The translations under genes were made by a program, and so were the position numbers. Of a stretch of 64,000 bases of DNA, positions 1 through 43,524 are shown one piece after another (position 1 is the first letter of the stretch; every line of letters starts with the position of its first letter). The notes beneath the pieces are model-generated. The model was not told the DNA's origin, searched no databases, and was given only the letters and a program-made list of their open reading frames with translations. Origin of the DNA: Escherichia coli (GTDB lineage: Bacteria; Pseudomonadota; Gammaproteobacteria; Enterobacterales; Enterobacteriaceae); the NCBI RefSeq assembly GCF_002854065.1, contig NZ_CP024147.1, one strand, 5' to 3'.

Positions 1-849
<849 letters not shown>

Positions 850-934: not shown

Positions 935-1010
935 GTCCCCTTCGTCTAGAGGCCCAGGACACCGCCCTTTCACGGCGGTAACAGGGGTTCGAATCCCCTA
1001 GGGGACGCCA
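935..1010 (+). tRNA. gltV: tRNA-Glu (anticodon UUC) in the 16S-23S spacer
   Basis: GTCCCCTTCGTCTAGAGGCCCAGGACACCGCCCTTTCACGGCGGTAACAGGGGTTCGAATCCCCTAGGGGACGCCA, 76 nt cloverleaf with CCA end. Confidence 0.95.
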
Positions 1011-1203: not shown

Positions 1204-4106
<2,903 letters not shown>

Positions 4107-4199
4107 ACAACGCCGAAGATGTTTTGGCGGATTGAGAGAAGATTTTCAGCCTGATACAGATTAAATCAGAACGCAGAAGCGGTCTGATAAAACAGAATT

Positions 4200-4319
4200 T
4201 GCCTGGCGGCCGTAGCGCGGTGGTCCCACCTGACCCCATGCCGAACTCAGAAGTGAAACGCCGTAGCGCCGATGGTAGTGTGGGGTCTCCCCATGCGAGA
4301 GTAGGGAACTGCCAGGCAT
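4200..4319 (+). rRNA. rrfE: 5S ribosomal RNA
   Basis: TGCCTGGCGGCCGTAGCGCGGTGGTCCCACCTGACCCCATGCCGAACTCAG...GGGAACTGCCAGGCAT, 120 nt. Confidence 0.95.
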
Positions 4320-4333
4320 CAAATAAAACGAAA

Positions 4334-4358
4334 GGCCATCCTGACGGATGGCCTTTTT
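4334..4358 (+). terminator. rrn operon rho-independent terminator (T1-like)
   Basis: GGCCATCC-TGAC-GGATGGCC hairpin followed by TTTTT just after the 5S gene. Confidence 0.75.
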
Positions 4359-4433
4359 GCGTTGGTGCAAAAAAATGCCGGATGCGACGCTGGCGCGTTT
4401 TATCCAGCTTACGCAGGCACGATAGGGGGCAGC

Positions 4434-4877
4434 TTATTCCCCCACATACGCCAGATTCAGCAACGGATACGGTTTCCCCAAATCGTCCACCTCAGAGCGT
4501 CCCGTAACCTTAAAACACACCTTCTTATAGAACCCAACCGCCTGCTCATTTTGCTCATTAACGTTGGTTGTCAGTTCCGGTGCCATCGAGAGCGCATGCT
4601 CCACCAGCATCCGACCCACGCCGCAGCCGCACACATCAGGATCGATAAACAGCGCATCCATATGCTGCCCACTTAACAACATAAACCCAACCGGCTGATC
4701 CCGTTCATTAACCGCGACCCACAACGGTGCTTCCGGCAGAAAGGAACGAACCAGCTCTTCCAGCTCGGCCCGATACTCTGCTGATAAAAAATCGTGGGTG
4801 GCATCGACAGATCGACACCAAATCGCAACGAGTTCCTCCCCTTCCTCATGCCGTGAGCGGCGAATACTAATAACCAT
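4434..4877 (-). CDS. yjaB: GNAT family N-acetyltransferase YjaB
   Basis: 147 aa ORF; protein recognised as YjaB; position after rrn operon and before metA. Confidence 0.9.
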   Translation of the reverse strand: MVISIRRSRHEEGEELVAIWCRSVDATHDFLSAEYRAELEELVRSFLPEAPLWVAVNERDQPVGFMLLSGQHMDALFIDPDVCGCGVGRMLVEHALSMAPELTTNVNEQNEQAVGFYKKVCFKVTGRSEVDDLGKPYPLLNLAYVGE

Positions 4878-6231: not shown

Positions 6232-7833
6232 ATGACTGAACAGGTAACAACAACCGATGAACTGGCTTTCACAAGGCCGTATGGCGAGCAGGAGAAGCAA
6301 ATTCTTACTGCCGAAGCGGTAGAATTTCTGACTGAGCTGGTGACGCATTTTACGCCACAACGCAATAAACTTCTGGCAGCGCGCATTCAGCAGCAGCAAG
6401 ATATTGATAACGGAACGTTGCCTGATTTTATTTCGGAAACAGCTTCCATTCGCGATACAGACTGGAAAATTCGTGGTATTCCCGCGGACTTACAAGATCG
6501 TCGAGTCGAGATAACTGGCCCGGTTGAGCGCAAGATGGTGATCAACGCACTGAACGCCAATGTGAAAGTCTTTATGGCCGATTTCGAAGATTCACTGGCA
6601 CCAGACTGGAACAAAGTGATCGACGGGCAAATTAACCTGCGCGATGCGGTTAACGGCACCATCAGTTACACGAATGAAGCAGGCAAAATTTACCAGCTCA
6701 AGCCCAATCCAGCGGTTTTGATTTGTCGGGTACGCGGTCTGCACTTGCCGGAAAAACATGTCACCTGGCGTGGTGAGGCAATCCCCGGTAGCCTGTTTGA
6801 TTTTGCGCTCTATTTCTTCCACAACTATCAGGCACTGTTGGCAAAGGGCAGCGGTCCCTATTTCTATCTGCCGAAAACCCAGTCCTGGCAGGAAGCGGCC
6901 TGGTGGAGAGAAGTCTTCAGCTATGCAGAAGATCGCTTTAATCTGCCGCGCGGCACCATCAAGGCGACGTTGCTGATTGAAACGCTGCCCGCCGTGTTCC
7001 AGATGGACGAAATCCTTCACGCACTGCGTGACCATATTGTTGGTCTGAACTGCGGTCGTTGGGATTACATCTTCAGCTATATCAAAACGTTGAAAAACTA
7101 TCCCGATCGCGTCCTGCCAGACAGACAGGCAGTGACGATGGATAAACCCTTCCTGAATGCTTACTCACGCCTGTTGATTAAAACCTGCCATAAACGTGGT
7201 GCTTTTGCGATGGGCGGCATGGCGGCGTTTATTCCGAGCAAAGATGAAGAGCGCAATAACCAGGTGCTCAACAAAGTAAAAGCGGATAAATCGCTGGAAG
7301 CCAATAACGGTCACGATGGCACATGGATCGCTCACCCAGGCCTTGCGGACACGGCAATGGCGGTATTCAACGACATTCTCGGCTCCCGTAAAAATCAGCT
7401 TGAAGTGATGCGCGAACAAGACGCGCCGATTACTGCCGATCAGCTGCTGGCACCTTGTGATGGTGAACGCACCGAAGAAGGTATGCGCGCCAACATTCGC
7501 GTGGCTGTGCAGTACATCGAAGCATGGATCTCCGGCAACGGCTGCGTGCCGATTTATGGCCTGATGGAAGATGCGGCGACGGCTGAAATTTCCCGTACCT
7601 CAATCTGGCAGTGGATCCATCATCAAAAAACGTTGAGCAATGGCAAACCGGTGACCAAAGCCTTGTTCCGCCAGATGCTGGGCGAAGAGATGAAAGTCAT
7701 TGCCAGCGAACTGGGCGAAGAACGTTTCTCCCAGGGGCGTTTTGACGATGCCGCACGCTTGATGGAACAGATCACCACTTCCGATGAGTTAATTGATTTC
7801 CTGACCCTGCCAGGCTACCGCCTGTTAGCGTAA
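6232..7833 (+). CDS. aceB: Malate synthase A
   Basis: ORF 6214..7833; known protein starts [13 protein letters not shown] at the internal ATG (6232); 533 aa. Confidence 0.95.
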
Positions 7834-9190: not shown

Positions 9191-9323
9191 GTAGGCCGGA
9201 TAAGGCATTTACGCCGCATCCGGCAATCGGTGCACGATGCCTGATGCGACGCTTGCGCGTCTTATCATGCCTACAACCGTTGCCGAACGTAGGCTGGATA
9301 AGGCGTTTACGCCGCATCCGGCA
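9191..9323. repeat. REP/BIME cluster in the aceA-aceK intergenic region
   Basis: Three REP units (GTAGGCCGGATAAGGCATTTACGCCGCATCCGGCA and inverted copies). Confidence 0.8.
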
Positions 9324-9350: not shown

Positions 9351-13242
<3,892 letters not shown>

Positions 13243-20896: not shown

Positions 20897-21277
20897 TACT
20901 TCTCCGGTTAGTAAGAAATCACGGAAGGAATGCTACCACTGCGAATTTAACCACTTACTGACATGGCTCACGATGTCACGTATTGCACAGGCGCTGAGAC
21001 TGATGACAAACACAGCATTGCCTGATGCGCTACGCTTACCTGGCCTACCAGATAACTGCAATATATTGAATTTTCAAAATTATGTAGGCCGAATAAGGCT
21101 TTATTCCGCATCCGGCATAAACAATGTGTACTTTGCCACCAATTTGAGCGCCCCTTAAGGCGCTGATGTTTTTTTATCCTTCTCGTGCACATTGGGCCGC
21201 TTCAGCAATCAGCCGCACATCAGGTCGCGAAGTTGCCGCGGCGACCAGCCAGCGACATGCAGAGTTAAGTAGCGCGA

Positions 21278-22519
21278 TTAATCATGGGAAATTGCCTCTG
21301 CATGAGTGAGCAGATATTGCTCCGCCTCACCGGACCAGATCCCCTGATGACGCGCCAGAATCGCCGCCAGTGCTTGATCCTGAATCTGCGTGAGTGACGT
21401 CAGCGGCAGGTATTTCCCGGTATACACCAGCTTTTTGCCGCCGCCGACGGCAGGCAATTCAAGCGTGGTTTCGCCCGCGGCATTCAGCCCAAGAATATGT
21501 GTTACCACTTTTGCGGCCTGCACTTTTTTCTCTTCGATCAGTTTGACCGCCGCGCGCATGTCGTCGGTATTGCCGCCTGACGTGCCCACGTAGTGGGTAA
21601 ATGCATAATGCACATCGTAGAAATTAATTGGCGCGCTGAAATGTTTATCCTGCGGTCCGGCGAAGAAATTCAGGCAACCATCTGTCGCCAGCAAGGAAGA
21701 GGCGAGAGTCACCAGTCCTTCATTAGGCACAAAGACGAAAATATCATCGAAGCCGTGACCGCCACTCAGCGCCATTAGCGTATCAAATGCTGCATCGGTG
21801 GCATTGAGATAATGAATCAGTGTTTGCGATTCTGATGGATAGTGCTTGCGCGCATAACTCAATTTATCGTTGTCGGTATCGGTAATGACGAGCAGCGACG
21901 GGTTAACGGGTCCATGCAGCGCATAATCAATCGCCAACAGTCCCATTGGTCCGGTGCCGCCGAGGATCAGCGTGCGCCCTTGCGGGCGAATCCCCATCGT
22001 GTGGTTATAACTACCTTCCTGAAGATGATAGTTGGCGTTGAACGCGCCAATCACGCAGGAAAGCGGTTCAACCAGCGAGCCTTCAAAATAGGTTTCGCCG
22101 TCGTATGCCAGCAGGCAATCTTGTTCCATGACCTCGTTGGGAATAACCACATGCGTGGCTTCGCCGCCTACCCACGGGAAGGAGTAGCCGGGGCAGTCCG
22201 GGCGGTCGGGGAGTTGCAGGTTGGCCTGAATCACATAACGCTGACCCGGCTGGAATTTGTGCTGCCACTTTTTACCCACGGCCAGAATATCGCCGCAAAA
22301 CTCGTGGCCGATGATGATTGGGTTGGTCGCCACATCGTCGGGTACTTTTTTATGGTTTTCACCCAGGTTGGCCTCTTTCCAGGAAGAGAGGCACAGGCTG
22401 TCAGTGACCACCGTCGCGAGGATTTCTTCCTCCTGCATTTCAGGAAGGTCAAAGGTTTCCAGGCGTAAATCACGTTTACCATAAAGACGCAGAGCTGTTG
22501 TTTTCATAAACCACCTCAT
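21278..22519 (-). CDS. sorE: Zn-dependent dehydrogenase, probable L-sorbose-1-phosphate reductase
   Basis: 413 aa (true start may be MKTTALRL, 4 codons in); MDR-family dehydrogenase fold; last gene of a sor-type operon. Confidence 0.8.
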   Translation of the reverse strand: MRWFMKTTALRLYGKRDLRLETFDLPEMQEEEILATVVTDSLCLSSWKEANLGENHKKVPDDVATNPIIIGHEFCGDILAVGKKWQHKFQPGQRYVIQANLQLPDRPDCPGYSFPWVGGEATHVVIPNEVMEQDCLLAYDGETYFEGSLVEPLSCVIGAFNANYHLQEGSYNHTMGIRPQGRTLILGGTGPMGLLAIDYALHGPVNPSLLVITDTDNDKLSYARKHYPSESQTLIHYLNATDAAFDTLMALSGGHGFDDIFVFVPNEGLVTLASSLLATDGCLNFFAGPQDKHFSAPINFYDVHYAFTHYVGTSGGNTDDMRAAVKLIEEKKVQAAKVVTHILGLNAAGETTLELPAVGGGKKLVYTGKYLPLTSLTQIQDQALAAILARHQGIWSGEAEQYLLTHAEAISHD

Positions 22520-22558
22520 GTTGAGCGATGGCCCCGGCAGTCGTGCCGGGGCGAAGAA

Positions 22559-23413
22559 TCAGGACAGGAAGCCCAGCGCATTGCCGATAATTCCTAAGCC
22601 AAACAGGGCGAAAATCAGCCATACCGGGTTAATTTTTTTGTTGAGCAGACGAACCATTAGTAGCGTCAGACCGAGCGCCAGCAAACCAGGGCAAAGTTGG
22701 TCGAGAATGTTCTGCACGGTCATGGTGACGGTGGAGCCATCGGCGGCATGCGTTTGTGAAACCACCAACGGTACGTTGATTGACGTCCATTTGGTGACCA
22801 GCACGCCCATCACAAACAGTCCGAGAATCGACGCGCCTTCGGTGAGTTTTTGCAGCACATTCCCGCCCATATCGCTGACGATATTCACCCCTTTGCGAAA
22901 GCCGAGCTGTAGGCCATACCACTTCATCGCCAGACGCACCGCGTTGAAAATAAAGAAGAACAGCAGCGGGCCGAGAATGTTGCCCGAAAGTGCCAGAGAT
23001 GCGCCGAGCGCGGCGGTAATCGGGCGCAGCGTTCCCCAGACCAGTGGGTCGCCAACCCCTGCCAATGGTCCCATCAGACCGACTTTGATGCCGTTAATGG
23101 TACCGTCATCAATTTCCGCGCCGTTGGCCCGCGCCTCTTCCATGGCGGCAGTGACGCCGATGACCGGGCCACATACGGCTGGCGTGGTATTGAAGAACAC
23201 CAGGTGTCGCCTGAGCGCCGCAACCTGATCCTCTTTTAATGGGTAAAGTCGCTTGATGGCGGGGATCATGTCGTAGCAAAAACCCAGCCCGTGAATACGT
23301 TCAAAGTTAAAGGACGCCTGTTGCAGGTTGGAGCGCAGAAACATGCTCACCAGATCGCTGCGTGTAATTTTTCTCTGTTCCATGATGGCTCCGTTAATCG
23401 TCAAGTTGGTCAA
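22559..23413 (-). CDS. sorM: PTS mannose/sorbose-family EIID component
   Basis: 284 aa from a TTG start, or from internal MEQRKITRSDLVSMFLRS; ManZ-like N-terminus. Confidence 0.85.
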   Translation of the reverse strand: MTNLTINGAIMEQRKITRSDLVSMFLRSNLQQASFNFERIHGLGFCYDMIPAIKRLYPLKEDQVAALRRHLVFFNTTPAVCGPVIGVTAAMEEARANGAEIDDGTINGIKVGLMGPLAGVGDPLVWGTLRPITAALGASLALSGNILGPLLFFFIFNAVRLAMKWYGLQLGFRKGVNIVSDMGGNVLQKLTEGASILGLFVMGVLVTKWTSINVPLVVSQTHAADGSTVTMTVQNILDQLCPGLLALGLTLLMVRLLNKKINPVWLIFALFGLGIIGNALGFLS

Positions 23414-24191
23414 GGGCGGTGGAGGCGGTGGCCTGGAGTTGAGGTTCAGCTTTACGCCACTGTGGATTTAGCTGGATGTAGACCAGGGCCATGATCACGC
23501 CGACGCCACCGAACGCCAGCAGACTGAGATCGAGGTAGCCACCTGCGAGGAAACCGAGGAAAAAGAAAGGCATCAAATATTTCACGCCCATCATACGTAG
23601 CACCATGGCGTAACCGACCACCACGATAAAACCGCCAGCAATCTGTAGTCCTCGGGTCACAAATTCGGGAATGGCGTTTAACATATTGCTGACCATATCG
23701 GCGCTGACGAACAGCGAGACAATCAGTGCCGGAATAGCAACGCGCAGCGCCTGCACGCCAAGCGCGGAGACATGCAGAATATCGAAAGTGCGAAACCGCG
23801 CCTCTTCCGCTGCTTTATCCGCCGCGTGCTGGAACACTACGGTGATGGTACGGGCAAACACCGTCAGCACCTGGCCTGCCGCAGCCACAGGCAACGCGAT
23901 GGCGATTCCGGTGGCGATGCTTTGCTGACCAACGATAACCAGAATGGCGGAGATTATGCTGGCGAGTGCAGAGTCCGGAGATTGCGCCGCGCCGACGTTC
24001 ATCCAGCCGAGAGCTATCAATTCCAGCGTACCACCGAGTATTATTCCGGTTTTTAAATCACCGAGAATTAAACCAATCACCGTACAGGCAATTAACGGGC
24101 GATGAGTCTGAAATTCATCCAGCACGCTGCCCATTCCGGCAATACAGGAAAAAAGAAATATAGCAATAATTTGTAGGGTACTTATTTCCAT
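23394..24191 (-). CDS. sorA: PTS mannose/sorbose-family EIIC component
   Basis: 265 aa polytopic membrane protein, ManY-like; overlaps sorM start. Confidence 0.85.
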   Translation of the reverse strand: MEISTLQIIAIFLFSCIAGMGSVLDEFQTHRPLIACTVIGLILGDLKTGIILGGTLELIALGWMNVGAAQSPDSALASIISAILVIVGQQSIATGIAIALPVAAAGQVLTVFARTITVVFQHAADKAAEEARFRTFDILHVSALGVQALRVAIPALIVSLFVSADMVSNMLNAIPEFVTRGLQIAGGFIVVVGYAMVLRMMGVKYLMPFFFLGFLAGGYLDLSLLAFGGVGVIMALVYIQLNPQWRKAEPQLQATASTALDQLDD

Positions 24192-24256
24192 GATTTGTCA
24201 CCTTTTAAGTGTCGTCATCCCTGCCTGTTAAAGCATATGTACACAGGCGCTATTAT

Positions 24257-24751
24257 TTAATTTGCGATTAACTGTTCGTTTATTTTGTCGATAATATTGA
24301 TTGAGGGATCTGACGCTACGACGCGTAAATCCAATATGACGCCAAGATTATTTAACTCATGAAATGCGTTAATATCATCATCATCTAATGAAACCGCTTT
24401 GGTTAACTGTTTTTTACCGGGCCGCCAGGCCATGCCGCCAATATTCAGGGTGCCTATTTTTACCCCCTGGCGAACCATCGCTAAGGCATCCTGTGGGCGA
24501 GTGAAAAGATAAAAAACGGTTTCGTCCTGATATTGCGGGTTGTGATAAACCGCGATGGCTTTTTCAATATTGACCACGTTAACCTTCATTCCCGGTGGCG
24601 CAGCCTGACGCAATAATGTCCGGCGAACTTCATCGTTATAAACTTCGTCATTGCAGATAATAATGCGCTGGGCGTTAGCCACTTTCGACCAGACGGTAGT
24701 GACCTGACCGTGGATCAGGCGGTCATCAATGCGGGCGAGCGTAATGTTCAT
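24257..24751 (-). CDS. sorB: PTS mannose/sorbose-family EIIB component
   Basis: 164 aa, MNITLARIDDRLIHGQV (EIIB-Man signature); ATGA overlap with sorF. Confidence 0.87.
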   Translation of the reverse strand: MNITLARIDDRLIHGQVTTVWSKVANAQRIIICNDEVYNDEVRRTLLRQAAPPGMKVNVVNIEKAIAVYHNPQYQDETVFYLFTRPQDALAMVRQGVKIGTLNIGGMAWRPGKKQLTKAVSLDDDDINAFHELNNLGVILDLRVVASDPSINIIDKINEQLIAN

Positions 24752-25158
24752 CAGAAATCCTCCTCTGTCGTTGCCAGTTGTTTCCAGACAACGCAGGATT
24801 GCTTTGCGATTTGCGTCAGGTGTTCACACAGTTCATCAACATTCATGCTGTCCTGGTTATCAACCAGTTCGAGGGCCAGCGGCAGAGAAAGGCCGCTGAT
24901 TACCCGCAGACGAGGATTGCGCATCGCAAGCATCGCTGCCGCATTCCACGGGCTGCCGCACTGTAAATCCACGGTAATCAGCCACTCATCTTGATTGTGA
25001 ATGCTTACTAACTTTTCCAGCTTTGCTACGATGTCTCCGGCGTTCTCGCCGGGCACAAATTCAACGGCTTCAACATTGGTGTTGCCGTAAACCATCTGAA
25101 CCGATTCCAGCATGGCGCAAGCTAATTTGCCGTGGGCACAAAAAATGGCGTTGACCAT
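24751..25158 (-). CDS. sorF: PTS mannose/sorbose-family EIIA component
   Basis: 135 aa, MVNAIFCAHGKLA... EIIA-Man-like. Confidence 0.85.
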   Translation of the reverse strand: MVNAIFCAHGKLACAMLESVQMVYGNTNVEAVEFVPGENAGDIVAKLEKLVSIHNQDEWLITVDLQCGSPWNAAAMLAMRNPRLRVISGLSLPLALELVDNQDSMNVDELCEHLTQIAKQSCVVWKQLATTEEDF

Positions 25159-25167
25159 AAAGCCTCC

Positions 25168-25974
25168 TTATCCGCGCGTTTTGCCGCCCGCAATGTTAGT
25201 GGTTACTCCGGTGATGTAGCTGGCGCGTTCAGACAACAGATAACAAACAAAATCAGCGACTTCTGCTAATCTTCCGGCGCGCCCAATAGGAATGGCGTTT
25301 TTGGTATAGCCTTCACGCAGCTGCTCGACGGTGATATTGCGCGTCCACGCCAGCGCCTCTTCATATTCCGGCGTGCGTAGCCCGGTTTTTTCCAGAATCC
25401 CCGGCGCGATACCGACCACACGGATACCGTGTTTACCCAGCTCTTTCGACCAGGAGCGCGTGAAGCTATTGAGCGCGGCTTTGGTAGCGGCGTAACAGCT
25501 TTGTCCTTCTGAGCCTTCCAGTCCACTTTCTGAGGAAACATTCACAATCACGCCATCATGTTGTTTGACCATCTGTCGCGCCACCGCCTGCGACATCAGA
25601 AAAACGCCTTTCTGGTTGATATTGACCATTTTTTCGAATACAGCTTCGTTGAGTTCATACTTCCCGGCAGGCGCTTTCTCATCGACCAGCAGACGCGGGA
25701 AATTGACCCCGGCGTTATTGACCAGACCGTCGATGCGACCAAAACGCTGGATAATTTCCGCTACCGTATGATTTACCTCTTTGGCGCTGGAAATATCGGT
25801 CGGCCAAAACTGATAGCCTTTATGACCTTCATATTGTCCATCGCCACCGTGAATATCGACCATCTGTACATTCGCGCCTTGTGCTAATAATTCCTCTACA
25901 ATAGCCAGACCAATACCGGATGCGCCGCCGGTGACGATAATGATTTTATCCTGCAAATTTAACCACGTTTGCAT
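25168..25974 (-). CDS. sorD: Short-chain dehydrogenase/reductase, probable D-glucitol-6-phosphate dehydrogenase
   Basis: 268 aa; TGGASGIG NAD-binding motif and YxxxK catalytic motif. Confidence 0.85.
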   Translation of the reverse strand: MQTWLNLQDKIIIVTGGASGIGLAIVEELLAQGANVQMVDIHGGDGQYEGHKGYQFWPTDISSAKEVNHTVAEIIQRFGRIDGLVNNAGVNFPRLLVDEKAPAGKYELNEAVFEKMVNINQKGVFLMSQAVARQMVKQHDGVIVNVSSESGLEGSEGQSCYAATKAALNSFTRSWSKELGKHGIRVVGIAPGILEKTGLRTPEYEEALAWTRNITVEQLREGYTKNAIPIGRAGRLAEVADFVCYLLSERASYITGVTTNIAGGKTRG

Positions 25975-26043
25975 AACAGACTCCTGATTTTAGATAATAG
26001 GGACCCGCCGTAATTTTTATTACGATAATCATCGGGAAGATTT

Positions 26044-26991
26044 TTATTTCAGTAATAGTTCAGCTGTGCTGCTATTCGTTACCAGACAATTAATATATTT
26101 TCCACGCAGTGCACCAATAATTCCGCTGTATTTTTCTTCACTCATGGCAATGCCAATTGAATATCGTGCCTGCTTTAATTTATTCATTTCGATAGAGAGT
26201 GTTTTTTCGCTCATATTCGTTTCAACCATTGCGCCGTGAATATCAAAAAAGCGCGAGCAAATATCGCCAGCAACCTGGCGGGCATTCAGGTCGTCACTCT
26301 CTTCACCACCATAAAACGCATGCCAGTTAGCGCCGTCGCGAATGGCCGGTGAGCCAATTCCCACCAGGGCGACATCCAGATTATCCCAGTAGGCAGAGAT
26401 GGTTTTAAAGTGCTGAGACTGCATGATCCCATTACGAATTAAGGGGTTATCCAGCAGAGCCGGAAAATCCGCGAGATGCGATTCCCCTTTCAGCTTCGCA
26501 GCCGCGCTGTAGGTTAATGTGTTTACGTGATAGCGGCTTTCGAGTTTACCGGACGGTCCGCCAATAATTGGTACGCAGATTAACTGCCGCGATTGCCCCG
26601 CCTGCGGCAAGTTTTCAACCAGTGCGCTCACCGCGCGACCCCAGGAAAAACCGACAATATCGCCAGGCTCCAGCAAGCGATCCAGCAGTTGCGCGCCGTG
26701 TAACCCCATCATCGCCAGTTGAGTCTCTTCATCCTCATCATTTCCCGACACCACCACAACGTCTTTCAGGCCAAACTTTTGCTTCAGTTGCTGCTCCAGC
26801 CAGAGATTTTCGTTGTAGTCATAGTTGATGGCGATGGTGACAATTCCCTGATCGCGGCCTCGTTTAAGCAAGCGGCTGATGGTGGTGCGGTAAATACCCA
26901 GTTCGCGCGCGATTTGCGCCTGCGTCATATCCTGTTCGTAATAGAGTTGGGCAATCTTCACAATCAAACGGATATCGTCACTGTTTTCCAT
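26044..26991 (-). CDS. sorC: SorC-family transcriptional regulator of the sorbose operon
   Basis: ORF 26044..27075; likely start MENSDDIRLIVKIAQ with AGGAGG RBS upstream; N-terminal HTH, C-terminal sugar-phosphate binding domain. Confidence 0.85.
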   Translation of the reverse strand: MENSDDIRLIVKIAQLYYEQDMTQAQIARELGIYRTTISRLLKRGRDQGIVTIAINYDYNENLWLEQQLKQKFGLKDVVVVSGNDEDEETQLAMMGLHGAQLLDRLLEPGDIVGFSWGRAVSALVENLPQAGQSRQLICVPIIGGPSGKLESRYHVNTLTYSAAAKLKGESHLADFPALLDNPLIRNGIMQSQHFKTISAYWDNLDVALVGIGSPAIRDGANWHAFYGGEESDDLNARQVAGDICSRFFDIHGAMVETNMSEKTLSIEMNKLKQARYSIGIAMSEEKYSGIIGALRGKYINCLVTNSSTAELLLK

Positions 26992-27338
26992 TGCCGCCTC
27001 CTGGTTCTGCACATTTGTGCAAATACGCTTTCTCACCGCTTGATCTGATATAACCCCATCATGATGGCCTTTCAAAGCGATTTTTCACTCTTTGCATGGG
27101 GAGAAATAGCGCTTTCTCTTGCACATTTGTTTCTCTGCGCAGTAGTCATCAGCACAGGTGTGCAGCGATTCGTAATATGTTGATTATCCTTATTTTGACA
27201 GGCAAATTTGCATTGTACTTCCGGAGACACTTTTGTGATAAAAGGCGTGGCAGATCACATTTAATTTCGACGTTGCCGCATAACCCTGTTTTTCCCCGCT
27301 AAGAGGTACGGTATATTCCGCGTTTTACAGGAGAATTT

Positions 27339-28484: not shown

Positions 28485-28582
28485 GATGGTGCCCTCAGTG
28501 AGCCAGAGAGTTCAGTGTACGGGAATTCGTTTGCGAGCAGAACTGATAATATTCCTTTGTTCTCTTCGGTAATGACTCCAAC

Positions 28583-29086
28583 TTATTGATAGTGTTTTAT
28601 GTTCAGATAATGCCCGATGACTTTGTCATGCAGCTCCACCGATTTTGAGAACGACAGCGACTTCCGTCCCAGCCGTGCCAGGTGCTGCCTCAGATTCAGG
28701 TTATGCCGCTCAATTCGCTGCGTATATCGCTTGCTGATTACGTGCAGCTTTCCCTTCAGGCGGGATTCATACAGCGGCCAGCCATCCGTCATCCATATCA
28801 CCACGTCAAAGGGTGACAGCAGGCTCATAAGACGCCCCAGCGTCGCCATAGTGCGTTCACCGAATACGTGCGCAACAACCGTCTTCCGGAGCCTGTCATA
28901 CGCGTAAAACAGCCAGCGCTGGCGCGATTTAGCCCCGACGTATCCCCACTGTTCGTCCATTTCCGCGCAGACGATGACGTCACTGCCCGGCTGTATGCGC
29001 GAGGTTACCGACTGCGGCCTGAGTTTTTTAAATGGCGGAAAATCGTGTTGAGGCCAACGCCCATAATGCGGGCGGTTGCCCGGCAT
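28583..29086 (-). CDS. insB: IS1 InsB (transposase C-terminal part, expressed as InsAB' by -1 frameshift)
   Basis: 167 aa ORF matching IS1 InsB. Confidence 0.9.
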
Positions 29087-29280
29087 CCAACGCCATTCAT
29101 GGCCATATCAATGATTTTCTGGTGCGTACCGGGTTGAGAAGCGGTGTAAGTGAACTGCAGTTGCCATGTTTTACGGCAGTGAGAGCAGAGATAGCGCTGA
29201 TGTCCGGCAGTGCTTTTGCCGTTACGCACCACCCCGTCAGTAGCTGAACAGGAGGGACAGCTGATAGAAACAGAAGCCAC
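29005..29280 (-). CDS. insA: IS1 InsA (transposition repressor / transposase N-terminus)
   Basis: 91 aa, [40 protein letters not shown]... Confidence 0.9.
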
Positions 29281-29330
29281 TGGAGCACCTCAAAAACACC
29301 ATCATACACTAAATCAGTAAGTTGGCAGCA

Positions 29331-30029
29331 TCACCCGTTGGTGCTTTCCCAGCTTAATGCCGCTGAGGTGGTTTTTATCATGACTTCTGTTCGGTAGCCT
29401 GCATCTTTGAGTTTTTTTAATGTTTGTAGCGGCGTAGCGGCATTACGAAATGTTCCTTCGACAACAATATTGAGTTTATTGGCTATGGCCCTCTCTATTG
29501 CACGTTCGACCGTTTCGCCGGAAAATTTTGCCGTATGGGTAACAAAATCGTCGCCATAAGTTTGATATATATAATTAAAATCAGGGTGTAGAAATCTGAA
29601 ATCATCACCATTAATAATCATTATATTATTCTTTGTTTCCCTTTTTGCTAATTCGATTAGGGCGGATTTTCCGGCTCCTGGTTGTCCACCTAAAACAAAA
29701 CCAATGGGACTCTGCTGGGATGTGACGTCATGGTTTGTCAGACGCTGCCAAATAGAATCAAAAGACGCTTTATTTTCTGAATGCGCAGTATTATTAAATT
29801 CACGCTGATACTTTTTTCTGACCTGCTGGAGGCGTAACTTTTCCTGTGTAAAATCAACAAGTTCTGCTTGAGTGGAATAAAGATTGTCGCGATAGCTGAC
29901 TAATTGTGATAGCTCATCGTCTGAGTCCTGAACTTGTGAGGAAAAACAACTGTCGACGATATTTGATAAAAACGCGATGCACTGACTGGCGCCGTTTAAA
30001 AGTGCATCCTTTTCCATTAAAGTAGCCAT
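29331..30029 (-). CDS. Zeta-toxin-like P-loop kinase domain protein, reading frame runs into the IS1 end (probably C-terminally truncated)
   Basis: ORF 29331..30035 with likely ATG at 30029 preceded by AGGAG; Walker A GGQPGAGKS, then INGDDFR and VEGTFR motifs; AT-rich; stop codon lies inside IS1 terminal repeat. Confidence 0.55.
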   Translation of the reverse strand: MATLMEKDALLNGASQCIAFLSNIVDSCFSSQVQDSDDELSQLVSYRDNLYSTQAELVDFTQEKLRLQQVRKKYQREFNNTAHSENKASFDSIWQRLTNHDVTSQQSPIGFVLGGQPGAGKSALIELAKRETKNNIMIINGDDFRFLHPDFNYIYQTYGDDFVTHTAKFSGETVERAIERAIANKLNIVVEGTFRNAATPLQTLKKLKDAGYRTEVMIKTTSAALSWESTNG

Positions 30030-30173
30030 TAACACTCCTGTTAAATGATATTTTTCGGTGATTGTAATACTGTTCTACAGGAGTGATTTTGCTTTTCAGA
30101 TATTATTTAATCTATGTTTTCAGTGAGGATGGCGTATAACAATTGGTGAGCGTTATACGCCAGTAGGGAAATA

Positions 30174-43410: not shown

Positions 43411-43524
43411 CTTTCACGCCTTATCCGACAACAACTGCCTGATGCGACGCTGACGCGTCTTATCAGGCCTACATACGTTTCGGTTTTGTAGGTCGGACAA
43501 GGCGTTCACGCCGCATCCGGCATT
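43411..43524. repeat. REP/BIME cluster in the malE-malF intergenic region
   Basis: GGATAAGGC...GCCTGATGCGACGCTGACGCGTCTTATCAGGCCTACA...GCCGCATCCGGCA; classic malE-malF REP location. Confidence 0.8.

Follow-up and report, generated by a model that had tools for sequence, protein, structure and literature searches.

The window (the whole stretch of Escherichia coli DNA analysed here, 64,000 nucleotides in length) was found to carry no yjaA gene between its rrnE operon and yjaB, an arrangement which is a real, already known and routine E. coli polymorphism. Typing of E. coli phylogroups has made routine use of the absence of yjaA since 2000, and the finding comes as no surprise to specialists. 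The results as a whole are read, with a probability of roughly 0.9, as follows: the window carries the common yjaA-less allele of this junction, its source strain would belong to phylogroup E, yjaA would be an ancestral occupant of the locus that has been lost repeatedly, and the alleles appear to have been swapped by recombination.

The window corresponds to the rrnE-yjaB-metA-aceBAK-arpA region of E. coli (97.8-99.1% identity to K-12 MG1655 from position 4,208,840 onward), and the gene order after yjaB is metA, aceB, aceA, aceK and arpA. The nearest complete genome, CUWW06, was 100.0% identical over 19.5 kb and 99.95-99.98% identical over approximately 47 kb, with IS1-associated rearrangements as the sole differences; not being the same as the window, it served only as a close proxy. 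The features of the rrnE-yjaB junction are the following:

1..849, 3' part of the 16S rRNA gene (rrnE operon)
935..1007, tRNA-Glu gene (rrnE operon)
1204..4106, 23S rRNA gene (rrnE operon)
4202..4317, plus strand, rrfE, the 5S rRNA gene and last gene of rrnE (Rfam RF00001, 92.8 bits; identical PGAP coordinates in CUWW06)
4325..4438, haplotype-specific segment of 114 bp, in place of a 520-bp yjaA-bearing segment of K-12 (megablast and MAFFT against K-12)
4334..4358, plus strand, predicted rrn T2-type intrinsic terminator (stem GGCCATCC / GGATGGCC, loop TGAC, then TTTTT at 4354..4358)
4377..4412, plus strand, single REP element, GCCGGATGCGACGCTGGCGCGTTTTATCCAGCTTAC (REP core pattern; preceded by an A-run)
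4434..4877, minus strand, yjaB, encoding a GNAT-family acetyltransferase of 147 amino acids (ORF list; Pfam Acetyltransf_10/7/1; yjaB in the CUWW06 annotation)

The rrfE gene of the window was 99% identical to that of K-12. With the last base of the 5S gene at 4317 and the stop codon of yjaB at 4434, the interval between them (4318..4433) measures 116 bp, in agreement with an earlier estimate of ~115 bp. Differences from K-12 rrnE within the 16S, 23S and 5S genes formed short patches (309..345, 1744..1755, 2925..2937 and 4211), a pattern typically seen with micro-heterogeneity of rrn operons or with gene conversion between operons.

In the K-12 annotation (NC_000913), yjaA (b4011, 127 amino acids) is flanked by rrfE (b4010) and yjaB (b4012), in the order which the original prediction had given. 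That prediction also suggested that yjaA is missing between the 5S gene and yjaB of the window, and named a BLAST search with the K-12 gene as a check and a copy elsewhere nearby as grounds for rejection. The suggested absence was borne out: blastn, tblastn and primer searches gave no yjaA match between the 5S gene and yjaB, the BLAST search with K-12 yjaA returned nothing above chance in 64 kb, and no copy was located elsewhere across the window. Only chance-level matches to the 64-kb window were obtained with the K-12 rrfE-yjaB segment (blastn, word size 7) and with the K-12 YjaA protein (tblastn), and neither the 2000 nor the 2013 version of the yjaA primer pair had a site in the window even when 3 mismatches were allowed. 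The yjaA.1b/yjaA.2b primers (211 bp) match K-12 perfectly and have no target in the window, giving a yjaA-negative genotype within it.

K-12 YjaA scored 177 bits (cutoff 125) against the YjaA family stress response protein model NF041448, no member of which is encoded in the window; the family has no Pfam domain. The phenotypes of K-12 yjaA mutants concern sensitivity to peroxide, cadmium and acid, as well as biofilm; the mentions of YjaA function found in the literature were of the list type only. Loss of yjaA would remove a small stress-response protein from the cell, and may or may not have a phenotypic consequence.

Three ORFs touch the 116-bp interval and none of them resembles YjaA. The ORF at 4362..4676 (plus strand, 104 amino acids, TTG start) had been described as the only one present and as antisense to yjaB; it is antisense, but two others, at 4199..4507 (plus strand) and 4161..4370 (minus strand), reach into the interval as well, both of them overlapping the 5S gene. 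As a candidate gene, 4362..4676 was rejected as a shadow ORF, having no Pfam match and lying antisense inside yjaB.

Homology to K-12 ends at window position 4324, which lies 7 nt beyond the 5S gene, and restarts at 4439, within the final sense codon of yjaB (breakpoints 5165 and 5686 in the extracted K-12 locus). Between these points, the 520-bp segment of K-12 contains a different terminator hairpin, yjaA and the 3' flank of yjaA. The C-terminus of YjaB reads ...YVGE* in the window and ...YVGA* in K-12, and the last residue is V in a B2-type strain. Since the whole segment between the flanks differs, including the hairpin and the last yjaB codon, the two arrangements represent alternative segments rather than the outcome of a clean excision. 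Nothing recognisable as a remnant of either yjaA or the rrnE terminator of K-12 was found in the 114-bp segment or across the window (blastn with word size 7, tblastn), and the direction of the event is therefore not readable from the window sequence itself. Divergence from K-12 near the junction was also considered as a possible mark of an old linked haplotype (16 differences over ~440 bp in yjaB, where the mean is 4.5 per 200 bp); this gave no clear signal, because comparable peaks were present elsewhere, in the bins starting at 6439 and 9039.

The hairpin GGCCATCC-TGAC-GGATGGCC at 4334..4353 starts 17 nt past the 5S gene and has a GC-rich stem of 8 bp (11 bp with A-U extensions) closed by a 4-nt loop. 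Its predicted folding energy was -21 kcal/mol (z = -4.6), and none of 200 shuffled sequences folded as well. A GC-rich hairpin followed by a U-run at the 3' end of a transcription unit has the form of a Rho-independent terminator, and the element is predicted to terminate rrnE transcription. A terminator scan of the minus strand gave a match at 4356..4331; given that the hairpin is palindromic and has a T-rich tail on the opposite strand, the terminator is probably bidirectional (4334-4358), serving both rrnE and the convergent yjaB.

In comparison with the T1-T2 region downstream of K-12 rrfA, the window hairpin (GGCCATCCTGACGGATGGCC followed by the T-run) corresponds to the distal hairpin, which we take to be the classical rrnB T2 terminator and which likewise precedes a REP element. 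The hairpin and REP of the window were together ~90% identical to this paralogous T2 and REP segment. The rrnB and rrnA operons end in tandem T1-T2 terminators, whereas the window has one hairpin only, and the rrnE operon of another yjaA-less E. coli, FDAARGOS_1250, has the full tandem of T1, a partial 5S repeat and T2. The sequence just upstream of the window hairpin, CAAATAAAACGAAAGGCC, resembles a hybrid of T1 flank and T2 stem. In one alignment, the single-hairpin form of the window fits an origin by deletion between the duplicated repeats of the 5S 3' end (AACTGCCAGGCATCAAATAAA).

The element at 4377..4412 resembles REP/BIME elements in being a 36-nt imperfect palindrome with a GCCGGATGCG...CTTATCC core, situated between convergent transcription units, where REP elements typically lie. 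Its core of the GCCGGATGCG...TTATCCGGCCTAC type, its imperfect palindrome of ~35 nt, its extragenic position and its repetition identify it as a REP; the core pattern was found at 3 sites in the window (4381, 9243 and 43441), with 0 expected. Unlike BIME clusters, it is a single copy, and it carries 3 substitutions relative to the copy downstream of rrfA. The original prediction of an rrn terminator with a REP-like fragment thus stands with regard to both elements but not with regard to the word fragment, the REP being complete, if with these substitutions. Elsewhere in the window, an Rfam match to naRNA4 (a nucleoid-associated RNA, REP325-type) lies at 9194..9271 between aceA and aceK and contains the REP site at 9243, and a further REP copy lies at 43441..43464; both are ordinary BIME/REP elements.

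Ribosomal RNA operons are classic break points of assembly, and many draft outgroup contigs end at this very junction, so that the missing yjaA could in principle reflect a mis-assembly or collapse at the operon boundary, or a yjaA gene placed elsewhere in the source genome. This explanation is considered highly improbable, as other, independent complete genomes share the junction (at 100% identity in strain 100416 and 99.98% in CUWW06), which has coverage of at least 80% in 531 genomes, O157:H7 strains among them. The interval itself is a coherent terminator and REP which is homologous across strains. Furthermore, yjaA is essentially single-copy and bound to its locus: of 5426 complete E. coli genomes, 2594 carry it, at 2601 places in all, and second-site copies are thus very rare. 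Absence, at ~52%, is accordingly the slight-majority state among these genomes.

Alleles without yjaA that are homologous to one another (T2 hairpin, A-run, REP and a GE* end of YjaB) were recognised in the window, in strains 100416, ECOR29, GPEC1042 and FDAARGOS_1250, and in Escherichia sp. E1V33; in ECOR29 and GPEC1042 the stem or loop sequences of the hairpin differ. Strain 100416, which with CUWW06 is nearest to the window among complete genomes, was 99.9% identical. Only six complete genomes were at least 99% identical to the window, and O157:H7 was 98.7% identical across the locus. Phylogroup E also contains O157:H7.

The phylogroup of the source strain was assessed by in-silico Clermont typing, for which the primer sequences were checked against a published table (PMC4322292, Table 1); yjaA is a Clermont PCR marker, as stated in the original prediction. 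The polymorphism at the rrnE-yjaB junction is the one scored by this marker in the triplex PCR of 2000 and the quadruplex PCR of 2013, with nothing different in kind. Two arpA amplicons are predicted in the window:

10677..11076, plus strand, aceK-arpA quadruplex amplicon of 400 bp (AceK.f/ArpA1.r)
12557..12857, plus strand, phylogroup-E-specific arpA amplicon of 301 bp (ArpAgpE.f/r)

Of the first primer pair, AceK.f is mismatched at 2 positions within the 5' half and ArpA1.r at 1 internal position, with no mismatch at the 3' ends, and the window is thus scored as arpA positive. The ArpAgpE.f and ArpAgpE.r primers both match the window perfectly and are each mismatched to K-12 at the 3'-terminal base, giving a positive score for the group E allele of arpA. 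The typing proposed in the original prediction could be read in the window itself for arpA (positive), yjaA (negative) and the group E arpA allele, and for chuA in the near-identical CUWW06 only: chuA lies outside the window and is annotated in the proxy, where an amplicon of 288 bp is predicted from primers with 0 and 1 mismatches. The TspE4.C2 locus lies outside both the window and the three CUWW06 stretches that were compared. Published group E profiles are + + - -, + + - + and + + + - (PMC4322292), and with yjaA absent either state of TspE4.C2 is compatible with group E (PMC4322292). The combination of arpA presence, yjaA absence, the group E arpA allele and, by proxy from CUWW06, chuA presence matches a published group E profile with a positive group E arpA PCR, and these markers indicate that the source strain is in phylogroup E. 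The yjaA-negative lineage suggested by the original prediction is thereby supported for the 64-kb window and made more specific. The practical value of this result is modest, in that it places the source strain in a fairly rare yjaA-negative phylogroup E lineage. In the closest genomes, PGAP names arpA (11056..13242, minus strand; full-length in CUWW06) as "espL4, type III secretion system effector", a discrepancy in naming which could confuse annotation-based typing.

Outside E. coli, the yjaA-less junction of 5S gene, T2 hairpin, REP and yjaB was found in two non-coli Escherichia (L004 and L028), with 92-93% identity to the window interval, and this layout also occurs in Pseudocitrobacter, most Citrobacter, Klebsiella and Salmonella arizonae/diarizonae. 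The layout without yjaA was the commonest among the outgroup genera sampled. A simple count would therefore favour ancestral absence with repeated gain, as would the sharing of the window-type junction with the two non-coli Escherichia. On that explanation, which is judged unlikely, yjaA would have been ancestrally absent from Escherichia, the window would preserve the original junction, and a cassette of yjaA and its terminator would have been gained horizontally by some E. coli lineages (A, B2 and C) through homologous recombination in the rrn and yjaB flanks. The hairpin of the K-12/B2 yjaA allele can be cited in its support, being unlike the T2 type of every other sampled taxon except Pectobacterium.

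The gene was nevertheless present in the same rrn-metA slot in Escherichia whittamii, Phytobacter, Kosakonia, Salmonella enterica subsp. salamae, Pectobacterium and Citrobacter youngae, and the identity of YjaA to the K-12 protein drops with phylogenetic distance, to 63-66%, about 50% and, in Pseudomonas, about 40%. Occupation of one slot from Pectobacterium to S. salamae, with divergence that scales with distance, fits vertical descent with loss better than repeated gain. Ahead of yjaA, a T2-type hairpin is found in Kosakonia, Phytobacter, S. salamae and C. youngae, and a different hairpin in Pectobacterium, where yjaA directly follows the 5S gene and yjaB is absent. In Pectobacterium (L048 and L049) and C. 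youngae (L050), metA-aceBA was observed to follow yjaA directly, yjaB being missing from between them; occupancy of the rrn-metA slot by yjaB is thus variable as well.

Within E. coli, two identity classes of yjaA were seen among complete genomes, and the A-type and B2-type alleles differ by ~1.6-2%, a distance that suggests long residence in the species and argues against the gain explanation. E. coli HH45 (NZ_CP116411.1; L055, 1432..1830) carries a T2 hairpin, a 5'-truncated and frameshifted remnant of a B2-type yjaA, and the GE* end of yjaB that characterises strains lacking yjaA. Its yjaA match of 89.7% (at megablast sensitivity) was the sole divergent and partial one among complete E. coli genomes; some of its 1-2-bp indels may be assembly errors. 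The HH45 locus shows a yjaA gene in decay at its original site, downstream of a T2 hairpin, which again points away from gain and towards loss.

E. whittamii Sa2BVA5 (L003, 3800..5035) was 98.6-100% identical to K-12 over the 3' end of the 5S gene, yjaA, yjaB and the yjaB-metA spacer, and 96.8% identical over the 62-bp yjaA-yjaB spacer, whereas metA, aceB and aceA were 92-93% identical. Judged by these identities, the tract and its yjaA cassette are evidently an import from E. coli by inter-species recombination. Import of the cassette through recombination in its flanks, as the gain explanation assumes, is thereby proved to be possible, and this passage between species offers one mechanistic reason why yjaA typing sometimes conflicts with whole-genome phylogeny.

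The preferred reading, that yjaA was ancestral and has been lost repeatedly, can be set out as a sequence of steps. The gene would be an ancient resident of the rrn-metA slot across the Enterobacterales which has been lost many times, and its status as such appears as a by-product of the present analysis. The yjaA-less allele would be the loss allele, in which the T2 hairpin of the ancestor would have been retained and a REP added. In the window, a predicted intrinsic terminator of T2 type closes the rrnE operon, and a single REP separates it from the 3' end of the convergent yjaB. Both alleles segregate in Escherichia and appear to be exchanged by homologous recombination anchored on the 5S and 23S genes on one side and on yjaB and metA on the other.

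A doubtful alternative is that both alleles are older than the split of the Escherichia species and persist as a trans-species polymorphism, possibly under balancing selection on a stress-response gene, with recombination anchored on rrn shuffling them repeatedly between species. Hints of this are the 92-93% identity of the yjaA-less allele in non-coli Escherichia, the E. whittamii import and the hybrid allele of HH45. If it were true, yjaA, a standard "phylogenetic" marker, would be in part a marker of recombination.

Two further features were observed further along the window. A 6.3-kb block between pepE and rluF (20978..27303) is absent from K-12 and contains a sorbose-type PTS operon, with genes for a sorE-like reductase, EIID, EIIC, EIIB, EIIA, an SDR dehydrogenase and a SorC/DeoR-type regulator; the sorbose IIB gene is intact in the window and interrupted by IS1 in CUWW06. 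Between yjbD and lysC, a complete IS1 (28568..29336), 100% identical to the IS1B copy of CUWW06, adjoins a truncated zeta-toxin/PezT-like ORF (29331..30035). At this position CUWW06 has an extra 2.4 kb by the IS1, with genes for a slipin and for a member of the DNA-polymerase-beta superfamily; the difference suggests that the window strain has undergone a deletion next to its IS1.
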